This document shows positions 6,382 to 54,180 of a DNA stretch of 64,000 nt, one piece after another (the stretch's first letter is position 1; every line of letters starts with the position of its first letter). The notes under the pieces were generated by a model, which was not told the origin of the DNA, did no database searches, and saw only the letters and a list, made by a program, of their open reading frames with translations. Origin of the DNA: Escherichia coli O157:H7 (GTDB lineage: Bacteria; Pseudomonadota; Gammaproteobacteria; Enterobacterales; Enterobacteriaceae); assembly GCF_013167455.1 (NCBI RefSeq), contig NZ_CP038328.1. One strand, written 5' to 3'. The translations under genes and the position numbers were made by a program.

Positions 6382-7057
6382 TATTCGTGAAGCACACGCG
6401 CGCGGCGAACAGGCAATGTCCGTGGTTCTGCGCGCCAGCATTATTACCCCGGAAGCCCGTGAAGTGGCGGATCTACTGGGTTTTACCATCACCGAATGTG
6501 ATGAATTGATCCCGGTAACGGCGTCCGTGCCCGCCAGCGTGCCAGCCGATAAAACCGAAAGCCAGCGCATCCGCGAAACCATTATCGCCCAGCTACCGGA
6601 AGGCCAGTTTACCGAAAGCCTGGTCGCGCAGCTGATGGAAAAAGTGATGAAGGAAAAACAGTCGCTGGAGCAGGGTGCAATGCAGCCGAGCTTCAAATCG
6701 GTGACCGGCAAAGGCGGCATCAAAGTGATTGATGGTAGCAGCGTCAAGTTTGGTCGCTTTGATGGCGCACAACCGCATTGCGTGGGCTTGACTGATCTTG
6801 TGACCGGAGACGACGGCAGCAGCATGGCCGCCGGTTTTATGCAGTGGGAGAACGCATTCTTCCCGTGGACCCTGAACTACGACGAAATCGACATGGTGCT
6901 GGAAGGGGAGCTCCATGTTCGCCACGAAGGCGAAACCATGATCGCTAAAGCAGGCGACGTGATGTTTATCCCGAAAGGCTCCAGCATCGAATTTGGTACG
7001 ACATCCAGCGTGAAATTCCTGTATGTCGCCTGGCCGGCTAACTGGCAATCCCTATGA
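6356..7057 (+). CDS. eutQ: EutQ, cupin-domain eut protein
   Basis: 233-aa ORF, GTG start overlapping eutP 3' end by 26 nt. Confidence 0.88.
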   Translation: MKKLITANDIREAHARGEQAMSVVLRASIITPEAREVADLLGFTITECDELIPVTASVPASVPADKTESQRIRETIIAQLPEGQFTESLVAQLMEKVMKEKQSLEQGAMQPSFKSVTGKGGIKVIDGSSVKFGRFDGAQPHCVGLTDLVTGDDGSSMAAGFMQWENAFFPWTLNYDEIDMVLEGELHVRHEGETMIAKAGDVMFIPKGSSIEFGTTSSVKFLYVAWPANWQSL

Positions 7058-7785
7058 AAGATTTCATCACCGAAGCATGGCTAAGAGCGAACCATACGCT
7101 CAGCGAAGGCGCAGAGATCCATCTCCCTGCGGACAGTCGCCTGACGCCCTCTGCCCGGGAGTTGCTGGAAAGCCGCCATCTGCGCATCAAGTTTATTGAC
7201 GAGCAGGGCCGCCTGTTTGTTGACGATGAACAGCAGCAGCCGCAGCCCGTTCATGGGCTAACCAGTAGCGATGAACATCCGCAGGCGTGCTGCGAACTGT
7301 GCCGCCAGCCGGTGGCAAAAAAGCCGGATACGCTGACTCACCTGTCGGCGGAAAAAATGGTCGCCAAAAGCGATCCGCGTCTGGGTTTTCGCGCAGTTCT
7401 CGACAGCACCATTGCGCTGGCAGTGTGGCTGCAAATTGAACTGGCGGAACCGCTGGGCTGCCAGGCGATTGTCGGGCTTTCTGACGAAGATCTGCACCGG
7501 CTTTCTCATCAGCCGTTGCGTTATCTTGGTCACGATCATCTGGTGCCGGAAGCAAGCCACGGGCGCGATGCGGCGTTGCTGAATCTGCTACGCACCAAAG
7601 TGCGGGAAGCCGAAACCGTAGCGGCGCAGGTGTTTATCACCCGCAGTTTTGAAGTATTACGCCCGGACATCTTGCAGGCGCTGAACCGCCTTTCCAGCAC
7701 GGTCTACGTGATGATGATCCTGAGCGTAACGAAGCAGCCGCTAACGGTGAAGCAGATCCAACAACGACTGGGGGAAACGCAATGA
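7054..7785 (+). CDS. eutT: EutT, ethanolamine corrinoid adenosyltransferase
   Basis: 243-aa [17 protein letters not shown]..., Cys-rich HPQACCELC motif; ATGA overlap with eutQ stop. True start not verified. Confidence 0.85.
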
Positions 7786-8798
7786 TTATTGAACGTTGTT
7801 GTGAACTGGCGTTGCGAGCGCCCGCCAGAGTGGTTTTTCCGGATGCGTTAGATCAACGTGTGCTGAAAGCTGCGCAATATTTACATCAACAAGGTCTGGC
7901 AACGCCCATTCTGGTCGCCAATCCGTTTGAACTTCGTCAGTTTGCGCTCAGTCACGGCGTGGCGATGGACGGGCTACAGGTGATAGATCCGCATGGCAAC
8001 CTCGCAATGCGGGAAGAATTTGCTCATCGCTGGCTGGCCCGCGCGGGCGAAAAAACGCCGCCGGATGCGCTGGAAAAACTTACCGATCCGCTGATGTTCG
8101 CCGCCGCAATGGTCAGCGCCGGTAAAGCGGATGTCTGTATCGCGGGCAACCTCTCTTCCACGGCGAATGTGCTGCGTGCCGGATTACGCATTATCGGCTT
8201 GCAGCCAGGCTGTAAAACGCTCTCATCCATTTTCCTGATGCTGCCACAGTACAGCGGTCCGGCGTTGGGCTTTGCCGATTGCAGCGTGGTACCACAGCCG
8301 ACGGCGGCGCAGCTGGCGGATATCGCGCTTGCCAGCGCCGAAACCTGGCGCGCCATCACCGGAGAAGAGCCGCGCGTGGCGATGCTGTCGTTTTCCAGTA
8401 ACGGTAGCGCCCGTCACCCCTGCGTTGCCAATGTCCAGCAGGCGACAGAAATCGTCCGTGAGCGCGCACCAAAGCTGGTAGTCGATGGCGAGTTGCAGTT
8501 TGACGCCGCCTTCGTGCCGGAAGTGGCGGCGCAAAAAGCGCCTGCCAGCCCGCTACAGGGCAAGGCCAATGTGATGGTTTTTCCGTCGCTGGAAGCCGGA
8601 AATATTGGCTACAAAATCGCACAACGACTCGGCGGATATCGTGCCGTCGGGCCATTGATACAAGGACTTGCCGCGCCGATGCACGATCTCTCTCGTGGTT
8701 GTAGTGTGCAGGAAATTATCGAGCTGGCGCTGGTGGCAGCTGTGCCGCGTCAGACAGAAGTGAACCGCGAAAGCAGTTTACAAACACTGGTTGAATGA
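7782..8798 (+). CDS. eutD: EutD phosphotransacetylase
   Basis: 338-aa PTA-family ORF; start overlaps eutT stop (ATGA). Confidence 0.9.
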
Positions 8799-8836
8799 AC
8801 GGTCCCGTTCTGGACCCTGATAAAGAGGAAAGCACA

Positions 8837-9130
8837 ATGGAAGCATTAGGAATGATCGAAACCCGGGGCCTGGTTGCACTGATTGAGGCTTCTGACGCGA
8901 TGGTGAAAGCTGCGCGCGTCAAGCTGGTTGGTGTTAAGCAGATTGGCGGCGGCCTGTGTACTGCCATGGTTCGTGGTGATGTTGCAGCCTGTAAAGCGGC
9001 GACCGATGCCGGTGCCGCAGCGGCACAGCGTATCGGCGAGCTGGTATCTGTACACGTTATCCCGCGTCCGCACGGCGACCTGGAAGAAGTGTTCCCGATC
9101 GGCCTGAAAGGCGATAGCAGCAACCTGTAA
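8837..9130 (+). CDS. eutM: EutM, major BMC shell protein
   Basis: 97-aa product [26 protein letters not shown]... (canonical BMC-H domain); SD AAGAGGA upstream of ATG 8837. Confidence 0.92.
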
Positions 9131-9236
9131 TCACCCTGTGTGACGTCGATTCGGGCGTCACGCTCTCTCATTTTTCATTTTACCTTCCGCGGAGGGTAGG
9201 GGGAGCTTTTACCTGAAATACGCCACGGAGGCGGGT

Positions 9237-9524
9237 ATGAAACTGGCAGTCGTCACTGGACAAATTGTTTGTACCGTACGCCATCACGGACTGGCGCATG
9301 ACAAATTGCTGATGGTGGAAATGATTGATCCACATGGTAATCCTGACGGGCAATGTGCCGTCGCCATCGACAATATTGGCGCGGGAACCGGGGAGTGGGT
9401 GTTGCTGGTGAGTGGCAGTTCCGCCCGCCAGGCGCATAAAAGCGAAACGTCACCGGTCGATCTGTGCGTGATTGGCATCGTCGATGAGGTGGTGTCTGGC
9501 GGTCAGGTAATTTTCCACAAATAA
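9237..9524 (+). CDS. eutN: EutN, BMC vertex (pentamer) protein
   Basis: 95-aa ORF MKLAVVTGQIVCTVRHHGL..., EutN/CcmL family. Confidence 0.9.
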   Translation: MKLAVVTGQIVCTVRHHGLAHDKLLMVEMIDPHGNPDGQCAVAIDNIGAGTGEWVLLVSGSSARQAHKSETSPVDLCVIGIVDEVVSGGQVIFHK

Positions 9525-12963: not shown

Positions 12964-12965
12964 AT

Positions 12966-13030
12966 GCCGCGTCTTATCCGGTCTGTGGGATTGCACATGT
13001 AGTGCGGATAAGGCTTCACGCAGCATCCGC
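12966..13030. repeat. REP-like palindromic element in eutG-eutH intergenic region
   Basis: GCCGCGTCTTATCCGG ... CGGATAAGGCTTCACGCAGCATCCGC inverted REP-type arms. Confidence 0.7.
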
Positions 13031-13062
13031 TAATAAATAACAACTAACAGGGAGTAAAGGCG

Positions 13063-47625: not shown

Positions 47626-47701
47626 TGGTGGGTCGTGCAGGATTCGAACCTGCGACCAATTGATTAAAAGTCAACTGCTCTACCAACTGAGCTAACGACC
47701 C
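47626..47701 (-). tRNA. lysV: tRNA-Lys (anticodon UUU)
   Basis: Reverse complement reads GGGTCGTTAGCTCAGTTGGTAGAGCAGTTGACTTTTAATCAATTGGTCGCAGGTTCGAATCCTGCACGACCCACCA. Confidence 0.95.
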
Positions 47702-47705
47702 GAAG

Positions 47706-47781
47706 TGGTGGGTGATGACGGGATCGAACCGCCGACCCCCTCCTTGTAAGGGAGGTGCTCTCCCAGCTGAGCTAATCACCC
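47706..47781 (-). tRNA. valY: tRNA-Val (anticodon UAC)
   Basis: Reverse complement reads GGGTGATTAGCTCAGCTGGGAGAGCACCTCCCTTACAAGGAGGGGGTCGGCGGTTCGATCCCGTCATCACCCACCA; third of three identical copies. Confidence 0.95.
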
Positions 47782-47827
47782 ACTTCGGTACTTCACATTT
47801 TTACAAGAAATTTAGCTGGTGAGAAAG

Positions 47828-47903
47828 TGGTGGGTGATGACGGGATCGAACCGCCGACCCCCTCCTTGTAAGGGAGGTGCTCTCCCAGCTGAGCTAATCA
47901 CCC
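47828..47903 (-). tRNA. valX: tRNA-Val (anticodon UAC)
   Basis: Identical to valY copy. Confidence 0.95.
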
Positions 47904-47947
47904 ACTTCTCAATTTCTTGCTACACGGCGGAGACTACATAAAGTAGT

Positions 47948-48023
47948 TGGTGGGTGATGACGGGATCGAACCGCCGACCCCCTCCTTGTAAGGGAGGTGC
48001 TCTCCCAGCTGAGCTAATCACCC
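47948..48023 (-). tRNA. valU: tRNA-Val (anticodon UAC)
   Basis: Identical to valY copy; first gene of the tRNA operon. Confidence 0.95.
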
Positions 48024-50637: not shown

Positions 50638-50964
50638 ATGACTAAAAATACACGTTTTTCCCCCGAGGTCCGTCAACGAGCAGTTCGTATGGTTCTGGAA
50701 AGTCAGGGCGAATATGACTCACAATGGGCGGCAATTTGTTCCATTGCCCCAAAGATTGGCTGTACACCAGAGACTCTGCGTGTGTGGGTTCGTCAGCATG
50801 AGCGGGATACCGGGAGTGGTGATGGTGGACTCACCACCGCTGAACGTCAGCGTCTGAAAGAGCTGGAACGTGAAAATCGTGAACTGCGCCGCAGTAACGA
50901 TATCCTTCGCCAGGCTTCCGCTTATTTTGCGAAGGCGGAGTTCGACCGCCTCTGGAAAAAATAA
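50638..50964 (+). CDS. IS629 OrfA (HTH / leucine-zipper transposase N-terminal protein)
   Basis: 108-aa [60 protein letters not shown]... Confidence 0.9.
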
Positions 50965-51851
50965 TGCCGCTGCTGGATAAGCTGCGTGAGCAGTACGGGG
51001 TCGGACCGGTATGCAGTGAACTGCATATTGCCCCGTCAACGTATTACCACTGTCAGCAACAGCGACATCATCCTGATAAACGCAGTGCCCGTGCTCAGCG
51101 CGATGACTGGCTGAAGAGAGAGATACAGCGCGTATACGATGAAAATCATCAGGTGTACGGTGTGCGTAAAGTCTGGCGCCAGTTGTTACGCGAAGGTATC
51201 AGGGTGGCCAGATGTACAGTGGCGCGCCTCATGGCGGTTATGGGACTTGCCGGTGTTCTCCGGGGTAAAAAGGTCCGTACTACCGTCAGCCGGAAAGCCG
51301 TTTCCGCAGGCGACCGCGTAAACCGTCAGTTCGTGGCAGAACGTCCTGACCAGCTGTGGGTGGCTGATTTTACTTACGTCAGCACATGGCAGGGCTTCGT
51401 CTATGTGGCGTTCATCATTGATGTGTTTGCCGGATGTATCGTGGGGTGGCGAGTCTCATCGTCTATGGAAACGACATTCGTGCTGGATGCACTGGAGCAG
51501 GCGTTGTGGGCCCGTCGGCCGTCCGGCACAGTCCATCACAGTGATAAAGGTTCTCAGTATATATCACTGGCCTATACGGAGCGACTAAAAGAAGCAAAAC
51601 TGCTGGCATCAACAGGGAGTACAGGTGACTCGTATGACAACGCGATGGCGGAGAGCATCAATGGTCTTTACAAAGCGGAGGTAATACACCGTAAGAGCTG
51701 GAAAAACCGTGCAGAAGTGGAACTGGCCACACTCACGTGGGTGGACTGGTATAACAATCGACGATTGCTGGGAAGGCTGGGTCATATCCCTCCGGCAGAA
51801 GCAGAAAAAGCTTATTATGCTTCCATCAGAAACGATGATCTGGCAGCCTGA
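50964..51851 (+). CDS. IS629 OrfB (DDE integrase-type catalytic domain), expressed as OrfAB by -1 frameshift
   Basis: 295-aa ORF in -1 frame relative to orfA with DDE-region sequence (WVADFTYV...HSDKGSQY...NAMAESINGLYKAE); A-rich slippery stretch GGAAAAAATAATG at the overlap. Confidence 0.9.
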   Translation: MPLLDKLREQYGVGPVCSELHIAPSTYYHCQQQRHHPDKRSARAQRDDWLKREIQRVYDENHQVYGVRKVWRQLLREGIRVARCTVARLMAVMGLAGVLRGKKVRTTVSRKAVSAGDRVNRQFVAERPDQLWVADFTYVSTWQGFVYVAFIIDVFAGCIVGWRVSSSMETTFVLDALEQALWARRPSGTVHHSDKGSQYISLAYTERLKEAKLLASTGSTGDSYDNAMAESINGLYKAEVIHRKSWKNRAEVELATLTWVDWYNNRRLLGRLGHIPPAEAEKAYYASIRNDDLAA

Positions 51852-53720: not shown

Positions 53721-53749
53721 GTTGACACATTCGGGCGGAATTCATATGA
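53721..53749 (+). promoter_or_regulatory. sigma-70 promoter of alaW-alaX tRNA operon
   Basis: TTGACA-N17-TATGAT with GC-rich discriminator GCCGCCCG, ~35 nt upstream of alaW. Confidence 0.7.
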
Positions 53750-53782
53750 TGCCGCCCGTCAACTCGACAAGCTTTACGTGAC

Positions 53783-53858
<76 letters not shown>

Positions 53859-53897
53859 AATTTTGCACCCAGCAAATTTGGTACGTAAACGCATCGT

Positions 53898-53973
<76 letters not shown>

Positions 53974-54180
53974 AATTTCCAACCCTCGCTGCAAAGCGGG
54001 GGTTTTTTGTCTCTGCTTTTTGCCGCTTTTGTAATACAGTCTACGTCCGGGTTAGTGCCGCCTGGTGAAAGCATCATTGGATGAAAAATCGGCAACAGGA
54101 TGGCCCCTGTTTGCTTCGCAATGCGAATAAACTTATTATTTGTGTGCCTGAAAACCCCGATCAGTGAGAGTAGTGTACTC

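Follow-up and report, generated by a model that had tools for sequence, protein, structure and literature searches.

A conserved RNA hairpin module in the eutM-eutN spacer of the Escherichia coli eut operon as a possible message boundary

What is the role of the long gap between eutM and eutN, the genes for the major and the rare vertex shell protein of the ethanolamine microcompartment, in the otherwise tightly packed eut operon of Escherichia coli? The DNA considered here (hereafter the window) is a stretch of 64,000 nucleotides (nt) of the chromosome of E. coli O157:H7 (contig NZ_CP038328.1), which carries the eut operon on its + strand in the order eutS-P-Q-T-D(pta)-M-N-E-J-G... according to the RefSeq annotation. 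We suggest that the 106-nt spacer following eutM encodes a conserved RNA module and that this module sets a boundary within the polycistronic eut mRNA directly past eutM, and we put the probability of this reading at about 0.45. In its best form, the reading takes the element as a 3' boundary or stabiliser of RNA, with at most weak termination, which also uncouples the translation of eutN. The spacer is structured, conserved and strand-specific, and both RNA and protein levels step down at the junction. A first-pass annotation, made from the sequence alone, had proposed a partial terminator or RNA-stability element here. The structures that it saw are real, selected and specific to the mRNA strand, and an RNA step is present; however, the terminator half of the proposal is weak, while the stability or boundary half is better supported.

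Location and fold of the spacer

The features of the junction are as follows, all on the + strand.

8837..9130, +: eutM coding sequence, encoding the major BMC-H shell protein of 97 amino acids (aa); the element flanks its 3' end (open reading frame, ORF, and RefSeq annotation of an identical O157:H7 record).
9131..9236, +: eutM-eutN intercistronic spacer, 106 nt, non-coding (ORF map and RefSeq).
9138..9163, +: hairpin 1, GTGTGACGTC, GATTCG loop, GGCGTCACGC, with its core at 9140-9161, starting 8-10 nt past the eutM stop codon; dG -17.4 kcal/mol, z -4.5 against dinucleotide shuffles.
9163..9188, +: G-free pyrimidine/U-rich tract CTCTCTCATTTTTCATTTTACCTTCC, 26 nt (sequence and fold).
9162..9206, +: hairpin 2, two-tier, with the outer stem GCTCTCTC (RNA GCUCUCUC) at 9162-9169 paired with GGGGGAGC at 9199-9206 (minimum free energy, MFE, structure equal to the centroid; RNAalifold).
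9207..9219, +: TTTTACCTGAAAT, that is, UUUU one base past hairpin 2, followed by the widely conserved TACCTGAA (alignment).
9221..9236, +: eutN ribosome-binding region, with the small hairpin (C)GCC-ACGGA-GGC(G), the Shine-Dalgarno (SD) sequence GGAGG at 9227-9231 and GGGT before the ATG (predicted, pair probabilities 0.8).
9237..9524, +: eutN coding sequence, encoding the BMC-P vertex protein of 95 aa (ORF and RefSeq annotation).

The 687 bases that span eutM and eutN are 100% identical to O157:H7 records. In the ORF map, the junctions of the operon measure, in order, 12, -26, -4, -4, 38, 106, 11, 10, -11, 99, -4, 11, 20, 9, 12 and 45 nt. The gap between eutM and eutN is the longest of the 16, only that between eutG and eutH (99 nt) being comparable, while all others lie between -26 and +45 nt. 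The first-pass annotation was thus right to call it long, and the sequence elements that it named (the hairpin, CTCTCTCATTTTTCATTTT, the TCCGCGGA core and the eutN SD) were all found where it had placed them.

In hairpin 1, GTGACG-N10-CGTCAC occupies 9140-9161, and the stem extends to 10 base pairs (bp), six of them GC, between 9138-9147 and 9154-9163. The pattern GTGACGYC-N3-30-GRCGTCAC has one match in the window against 0.00 expected (100 shuffles). With 10 bp and a 6-nt loop the stem is of the terminator type (GC-rich, about 5-14 bp, short loop); it is also a stable, maintained stem-loop directly 3' of an over-expressed cistron, as is typical of the stabiliser class. Directly after it comes CTCTCTCATTTTTCATTTT at 9163-9181. 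The 5' part of the G-free tract (9163-9188) provides the outer-stem strand of hairpin 2, while 9170-9180 are predicted to form a single-stranded, U-rich and asymmetric internal loop of 11 nt, which is a candidate for an endonuclease site or a weak terminator tail.

Above this loop, the inner hairpin TACCTTC-CGCG-GAGGGTA at 9181-9198 holds the TCCGCGGA core (9186-9193), which is the second GC-rich palindromic segment noted by the first-pass annotation before the eutN SD. Between hairpin 2 and the SD hairpin lies UUUUACCUGAAAUAC, a 15-nt stretch predicted to be single-stranded, within which UACC is predicted by RNAalifold to pair with GGUA at 9234-9237, without covariation support. In the small hairpin GCC-ACGGA-GGC of eutN, most of the SD is predicted to be exposed in the loop.

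Taken as a whole, the spacer folds on the + strand with -41.4 kcal/mol (MFE equal to the centroid, 27.7% of the ensemble, z -2.75, with 3 of 200 shuffles as good), whereas the reverse strand reaches only -29.3 kcal/mol (z -1.1). The weaker fold of the - strand, together with several G-U pairs that are valid in the sense transcript only, argues for a feature of the RNA rather than of the DNA.

The spacer also contains an imperfect tandem direct repeat, 9177-9206 against 9207-9239, in which TTTTACCT...CC(G/A)CGGAGG...GGG occurs twice; 3 of 2000 shuffles scored as high. Through this repeat, the inner portion of hairpin 2 resembles a degenerate duplicate of the eutN ribosome-binding region. The repeat was not seen in Citrobacter sp. 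R56. A long-range pairing of the 5' arm of hairpin 1 with GTCGTCAC in eutN codons 5-7 was considered and rejected: GTCGTCAC is also present in genera whose spacer is of a different type (class B below), and is absent from several genera with hairpin 1.

Conservation, covariation and selection

For comparison, one genome per species was scanned with EutN, which gave 48 loci; with two E. coli records added, 41 enterobacterial and three outgroup spacers were obtained. Within E. coli, blastn with an identity of at least 90% finds the spacer in 5406 of 5426 complete genomes, at one place per genome (median). O157 differs from K-12 at two positions, namely in the internal loop (9170) and in the tetraloop (9188), and the difference in E. 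whittamii falls in the loop of hairpin 1.

According to what follows eutM, the enterobacterial loci fall into two main classes. Hairpin 1 characterizes class A (26 of 41 loci), that is, Escherichia, the C. freundii complex, Citrobacter sp. R56, NCU1 and Awk4, K. spallanzanii, Buttiauxella, Entomohabitans and Yokenella; all of these except Buttiauxella, Entomohabitans and Yokenella also have CUCUCUCC, hairpin 2, GGGGGAG and UUUUACCUGAAAU. In class B (14 of 41), repetitive extragenic palindromic (REP) units or bacterial interspersed mosaic elements (BIMEs) with GCCGGATAAG...CTTATCCGGCCTAC cores are present instead; its members are Salmonella, K. pneumoniae, K. oxytoca, K. michiganensis, K. grimontii, C. 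koseri, C. amalonaticus, C. sedlakii, Pseudocitrobacter and Pluralibacter. The remaining locus, in Intestinirhabdus, has another GC-rich hairpin.

In 15 core sequences of class A (Escherichia, Citrobacter and K. spallanzanii), 97.5% of the cells of the three-helix structure are paired, compared with 48-65% when the partners are slid by 1-3 columns, and RNAalifold independently gave the same helices. Three pairs are compensatory (alignment columns 51-95, CG<->GC; 71-86, AU<->GC; 73-84, CG<->UA). Invariant in the same sequences are CTCTCTCC and TTTT as well as TTTTACCTGAAAT, and TACCTGAA is also kept in Buttiauxella and Entomohabitans. Hairpin 1 itself occurs in 26 loci from six genera, always at +7 to +10 after the eutM stop and with -13 to -19 kcal/mol, and its loops vary freely in length (4-22 nt) and sequence. 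Its closing pair is G-C or, in Yokenella, A-U; pair 7 is U-G, C-G or U-A, of which U-G is valid on the + strand only. When E. coli is compared with the C. freundii group, identity is 88-89% over the final 73 nt of the spacer, against 56-67% at the 4-fold sites of eutM and eutN. Hairpins 1 and 2 form on the sense strand only, are under purifying selection and lie at a fixed distance after the eutM stop. The comparison of sequences supports the structures, though it does not prove them, and its depth is modest.

All 41 enterobacterial spacers are 52-144 nt long, fold with z from -0.7 to -5.2 against shuffles and contain stable hairpins or REP palindromes. In the outgroups (Pseudomonas and two Rhodocyclaceae), the spacers are GC-rich, 131-211 nt long and fold deeply, with -66 to -111 kcal/mol and z of -1.3, -3.7 and +0.4. 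The trait common to all lineages is at least one stable stem-loop that starts within about 10 nt of the eutM stop; a particular sequence, a second hairpin or a U-rich tail is not shared. In the Salmonella eut operon, where conservation had been proposed as a check, the junction has REP/BIME palindromes instead of hairpin 1. In Salmonella, most Klebsiella and several Citrobacter, the REP/BIME units would presumably do the same job, since stabiliser and partial-terminator activities of REPs are documented.

Two natural variants of the junction should be mentioned here. K. spallanzanii (locus L043) has a spacer of the Escherichia/Citrobacter type and an EutM 97.9% identical to that of E. coli, while other Klebsiella (L030-L032 and L037) are REP-type; either a recent replacement within the K. 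oxytoca complex or a horizontal transfer of eut could account for it. In E. coli strain 90-1, a copy of IS911 (locus L052, 2580-3858) lies in the TTTT run of the spacer (window about 9209/9210), which is a natural disruption found in 1 of 5426 genomes.

Expression across the junction

Published RNA-seq data for E. coli LF82 give the following values, in reads per kilobase per million (RPKM), for minimal medium and bile salts, respectively: eutT 13 and 83, eutD 108 and 357, eutM 55 and 177, eutN 5 and 62, eutE 14 and 149, eutJ 13 and 147, eutG 35 and 168, eutH 106 and 514 (PMC6379400, Table 1). According to these per-gene values, RNA changes from eutM to eutN by a factor of 0.09 (11-fold, basal) and 0.35 (2.9-fold, induced), which is the biggest drop between adjacent genes in both conditions. 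That LF82 has the class-A spacer is inferred from its prevalence in E. coli (5406 of 5426 genomes). The proteome of strain W3110 shows EutQ at 100, EutM 96, EutL 39, EutB 37, EutE 27, EutC 24, EutS 11, EutD 10, EutK 8, EutG 7, EutP 7 and EutN 1 (PMC11334477), that is, an EutM:EutN protein ratio of about 96:1. For K. pneumoniae 342, whose junction is REP-type, reverse-transcription quantitative PCR gave an induction of 478-fold for eutM, 13-fold for eutS and 5.7-fold for eutK (PMC12058022, Table 1).

The energies predicted for opening the ribosome-binding site (RBS) are 5.5 kcal/mol for eutM, 5.3 for eutE, 14.2 for eutN, 15.0 for eutG, 15.5 for eutJ and 21.4 for eutR, and these modelled values fit the protein data. 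The proposal that EutM is raised above the downstream genes holds locally, for RNA and protein at the eutM-eutN step, but not for the operon at large: EutE, EutB and EutL reach 27-39% of EutM, and the RNA of eutH and eutB exceeds that of eutM.

A message boundary just past eutM

How could the element act? If it is a boundary, cleavage of the message would occur at the unpaired U-rich stretches of the spacer or at a point further on; alternatively, transcription would now and then end at the weak U/C tails. The stable hairpins 1 and 2 would then stop 3'-to-5' exonucleases, and the eutD-eutM segment would outlive the eutN-proximal segment and give more EutM. At the same time, the long folded spacer would block translational coupling from the heavily translated eutM into eutN, whose RBS is predicted to be comparatively closed, which would keep the vertex protein rare. 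In this scheme, we infer that the hairpins act as a barrier to nucleases, where the message is cleaved, and that the element causes the step.

Several points weigh against this reading. The RNA of LF82 is also uneven elsewhere, rising 4-8 fold from eutT to eutD and 3 fold from eutG to eutH and changing by a factor of 0.34-0.43 from eutH to eutA; consequently, internal promoters or other determinants of decay could make the eutM-eutN step. The RPKM of eutM is lower than that of eutD, contrary to a simple gradient of 3' protection. EutQ is about as abundant as EutM, and the neighbouring EutD is 10-fold lower, hence translation efficiency clearly dominates the protein ratios. Among genera with nearly saturated synonymous sites, six of the eight core stem pairs of hairpin 1 show no change, which hints at a sequence-specific constraint outside the model. 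The covariation is shallow, consisting of the three compensatory pairs among closely related genera. The replacement by REPs could also mean that the sequence is dispensable; indeed, together with the IS911 insertion, it indicates that the particular class-A sequence is dispensable. Finally, Term-seq of uninduced MG1655 (Adams et al. 2021, supplement) contains no sense 3' end in the spacer, although the operon is silent under that condition and the result is uninformative.

In the same Term-seq data, the weak 3' end of an antisense RNA maps within the 3' part of eutM (window about 9070, - strand; MG1655 2572217, +). It points to some antisense transcription across the spacer in uninduced cells, and no antisense promoter was found in the scan.

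On the other side of eutM, a hairpin GGTCC-CGTTCT-GGACC followed by CCC is located at 8801-8816 (+) in the eutD-eutM spacer (8799-8836), 21 nt before the eutM ATG. Escherichia, Citrobacter, Salmonella, Klebsiella, Pseudocitrobacter and Intestinirhabdus share it nearly unchanged, whatever element follows eutM, and Buttiauxella lacks it. With the 3' hairpins, eutM is thus flanked on both sides by conserved hairpins, and the upstream one might serve as the 5' boundary of a stable eutM segment. A bolder idea, which we regard as doubtful, is that eutM lies in an RNA "expression cassette", in which the 5' hairpin (8801-8816) and the 3' module (9138-9206) would carve a long-lived eutM (or eutD-eutM) message from the 17-gene transcript and, with the occluded eutN start, set the facet-to-vertex ratio of about 100:1. 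If this were true, the repeated replacement of the 3' module by REPs would show, in a natural setting, that REPs and unique hairpins can stand in for each other functionally.

Alternative explanations

Could the drop simply be due to Rho-independent termination? Partial termination at hairpin 1 with its U/C-rich tail, or at hairpin 2 with CUUUUA, would impose a fixed cut on all distal transcription, and we hold it to be rather unlikely. A terminator scan does flag 9138-9163 followed by TCTCTCATTT (10 pairs, 6 GC), Buttiauxella has better tails right after the same hairpin (for example, UUUCUUUAAC and CUUCUUUUAC, with UUUCUUU abutting the stem), hairpin 2 is followed one base on by a UUUU that is invariant in the 15 sequences, and the RNA of LF82 falls at this very junction. 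However, the site passes the lenient scan only, where six matches compare with 3.1 expected per 2.5 kb, and the tail of hairpin 1, UCUCUCAUUUUU, has only four U in its first eight bases, alternating with C (UCUCUC(A/C)U), while UCUCUCAU precedes the U run. True terminators of the window have U runs contiguous with the stem, such as 53981-54004 followed by TTTTGTCT. The U-tract after hairpin 2, CUUUUACC, is interrupted as well, and pairing with GGGGGAG already accounts for CUCUCUCC being conserved. In Yokenella, hairpin 1 has no U-rich tail, and REP-type spacers are without a U tract. Besides, the eutM/eutN RNA ratio changes from 11 to 2.9 upon induction, which is not a fixed efficiency, and the distal genes are well expressed, as noted above for eutH and eutB RNA and for EutE, EutB and EutL. 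A canonical terminator is therefore not supported, and weak termination is possible; a terminator and a decay barrier would look alike in steady-state RNA-seq, as each leaves an RNA species that ends in the same 3' hairpin. Rho-dependent termination at a Rho utilization (rut) site was rejected too: the 106 nt contain 28 C and 31 G, that is, no excess of C over G, and just one 26-nt G-free run, which is partly base-paired.

A purely translational effect is improbable in our judgement. It would have the folded spacer insulate eutN from the ribosomes of eutM, with the SD hairpin, the UACC:GGUA helix and a pairing of the AUG limiting de novo initiation, and the eutM mRNA unaffected. The greatest protein step of the operon, from EutM at 96 to EutN at 1, is consistent with it, as is the return of EutE to 27 although its gene begins just 11 nt past eutN; the predicted opening energy of the eutN RBS is among the highest of the operon, the bases flanking the SD are predicted to be paired with probabilities of 0.8-0.97, the 30 nt before the eutN ATG are almost invariant, and the spacer is at least 52 nt long in every enterobacterial lineage regardless of its sequence. 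However, the GGAGG core is predicted to be mostly unpaired in its loop, and the UACC:GGUA helix is absent in Buttiauxella besides having no covariation. The AUG-occluding helix is formed with eutN codons 13-15, where the partners are constrained by coding, and one of its pairs is broken in Salmonella, Klebsiella and C. youngae. Moreover, such an effect leaves unexplained both the RNA step and the conservation of hairpins 1 and 2, located 30-100 nt before the RBS.

Still less probable is a neutral spacer, that is, a tolerated gap gathering palindromes as a hot spot of REP insertion, with the Escherichia/Citrobacter sequence as a slowly decaying relic. It would accommodate the finding that 14 of the 41 enterobacterial loci have unrelated REP/BIME units entirely in place of the class-A sequence, the IS911 copy in one E. 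coli strain, and the degenerate REP in the other long gap, eutG-eutH. But conservation beyond that of synonymous sites, stems with compensatory and wobble-only changes around free loops, and a strand-asymmetric fold all speak against it, and the structured spacer has been lost in none of 41 lineages despite the deletion bias of bacteria.

CsrA reportedly controls eut genes in Salmonella. A binding site for a trans-acting factor, either CsrA bridging the CGGAGG motifs at 9190-9195 and 9226-9231 or a candidate protein specific for the invariant GUGACGYC/GRCGUCAC stem or for the DNA palindrome, is very improbable: it would fit the invariance of six of the eight core pairs among genera with 4-fold sites only about 45-55% identical, and the two GGA-containing motifs 35 nt apart, one of them in a hairpin loop overlapping the SD, but GGA is inherent in any GGAGG SD, an arm spacing of 4-22 nt speaks against a dimeric DNA-binding site, the REP-type lineages are entirely without the motif, and binding data were not found.

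Other candidates were also considered for the spacer. A small ORF is rejected, as the frame ending at TGA 9214-9216 has no ATG, GTG or TTG and the loop indels of homologues are not multiples of 3. A CRP-like site (TGTGA...TCAC) is rejected by inspection, the spacing being 14 nt and not 6. A scan for sigma-70 promoters on both strands of the spacer found none, and a review of EutR-type eut operons names the promoters P1 and P2 only (PMC5821096). No E. coli record, including that of MG1655, annotates a feature in the spacer; near it, no Rfam family reaches the gathering threshold, and a search of 9080-9300 gave no match at E<=10 either. Literature searches on stem-loops or small RNAs between eutM and eutN (also under the names cchA and cchB) did not find a description of the junction.

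Other observations in the window

An in-frame ATG upstream of eutM (8795-8797) overlaps the eutD stop (ATGA) and would add 14 codons, giving the 111-aa ORF of older annotations. Since the C. freundii group lacks this ATG and Salmonella has it in another frame, the extension is probably not real. The eutT gene (7054-7785) has 243 codons here compared with 267 in K-12, 24 codons (WQPWLADIRSRLGNIMRADALGEP) having been lost in frame between short AEP/GEP repeats. In the eutG-eutH spacer (12964-13062, 99 nt), there is a degenerate REP-like palindrome, GTCTTATCCGG...GCGGATAAGGC, with a match to the REP consensus at 12999-13012; this gap is 216 nt in MG1655, and the RNA of LF82 rises 3-fold across it.

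Further away, an IS3-family element at 50638-51851 has two overlapping ORFs and an ALIL frameshift pseudoknot at 50919-51035 (Rfam RF01497, 120.9 bits). Clusters of tRNA genes flank the gltX region, with four genes at 47629-48023 (-) and two at 53783-53970 (+). Positions 48068-48041 (-) and 53722-53750 (+) hold strong promoter-like sites, and 53981-54004 a canonical terminator.

Comparison with known systems

In the shells of microcompartments, facet proteins are needed in large excess over vertex proteins, and wrong ratios lead to elongated or open shells. If the boundary reading is true, an RNA boundary at the EutM/EutN junction would account for part of this stoichiometry, would offer a simple portable part for the engineering of synthetic shells, and would be a clean natural case for the equivalence of REPs and unique hairpins as regulators. 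The understanding of operons would be left unchanged by the finding.

Intercistronic RNA hairpins with a regulatory role are known from other eut loci, namely the terminators controlled by ANTAR/EutV in Enterococcus and Listeria (PMC5821096). The present element is like them in being an intercistronic RNA hairpin within a eut locus; as a substrate of ANTAR it is rejected, for the dual hexaloop motif is absent (loops of 4-22 nt in hairpin 1 and 4 nt in hairpin 2), the operon is of the EutR type (eutSPQTDMNEJGHABCLKR) without EutV/W genes, and there is no Rfam match. Intra-operon attenuators such as that between rplL and rpoB also combine a GC-rich hairpin and a U-containing tract in a long gap, with partial read-through. 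The eut element differs from them in its interrupted U-tract (UCUCUCAU, CUUUUACC) and in that some lineages have the hairpin without the tail.

Stabiliser hairpins, as in Rhodobacter capsulatus pufBA versus pufLMX and in the processing of E. coli papB-papA, give segmental mRNA stability and thereby unequal output from one promoter. Here too a structural protein in excess is encoded upstream of a hairpin-rich gap, with EutM about 100-fold over EutN and a drop in RNA; the puf and pap sequences are unrelated to the eut element.

REPs inside operons, such as that in malEFG, are reported to protect the upstream mRNA from 3'-5' exonucleases and to reduce read-through. REP325 in the yjdMN operon acts as a stabiliser of the upstream mRNA and a partial terminator (bioRxiv 10.64898/2026.03.23.713779). 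Like the REP/BIME sequences at malE-malF and yjdM-yjdN, the spacer element is a stable extragenic palindrome that forms an RNA hairpin in an intercistronic gap, directly following the gene of a tandem pair that is the more abundant. Membership of the REP/BIME family itself is rejected: a search for CTTATCCGGCCTAC with up to two mismatches gave five matches in the window, none of them in 9131-9236, and class-A spacers contain no REP core motif. Nor is it a dispersed repeat, with a median of one place per E. coli genome for the spacer and a hairpin 1 pattern unique in the window. The E. coli element differs from REPs in having a conserved sequence of its own, which is common to Citrobacter, Buttiauxella and others. 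By analogy, the eut element may plausibly be regarded as an undescribed and unsurprising case of operon fine-tuning, functionally like intra-operonic REPs and the classical stabilisers.

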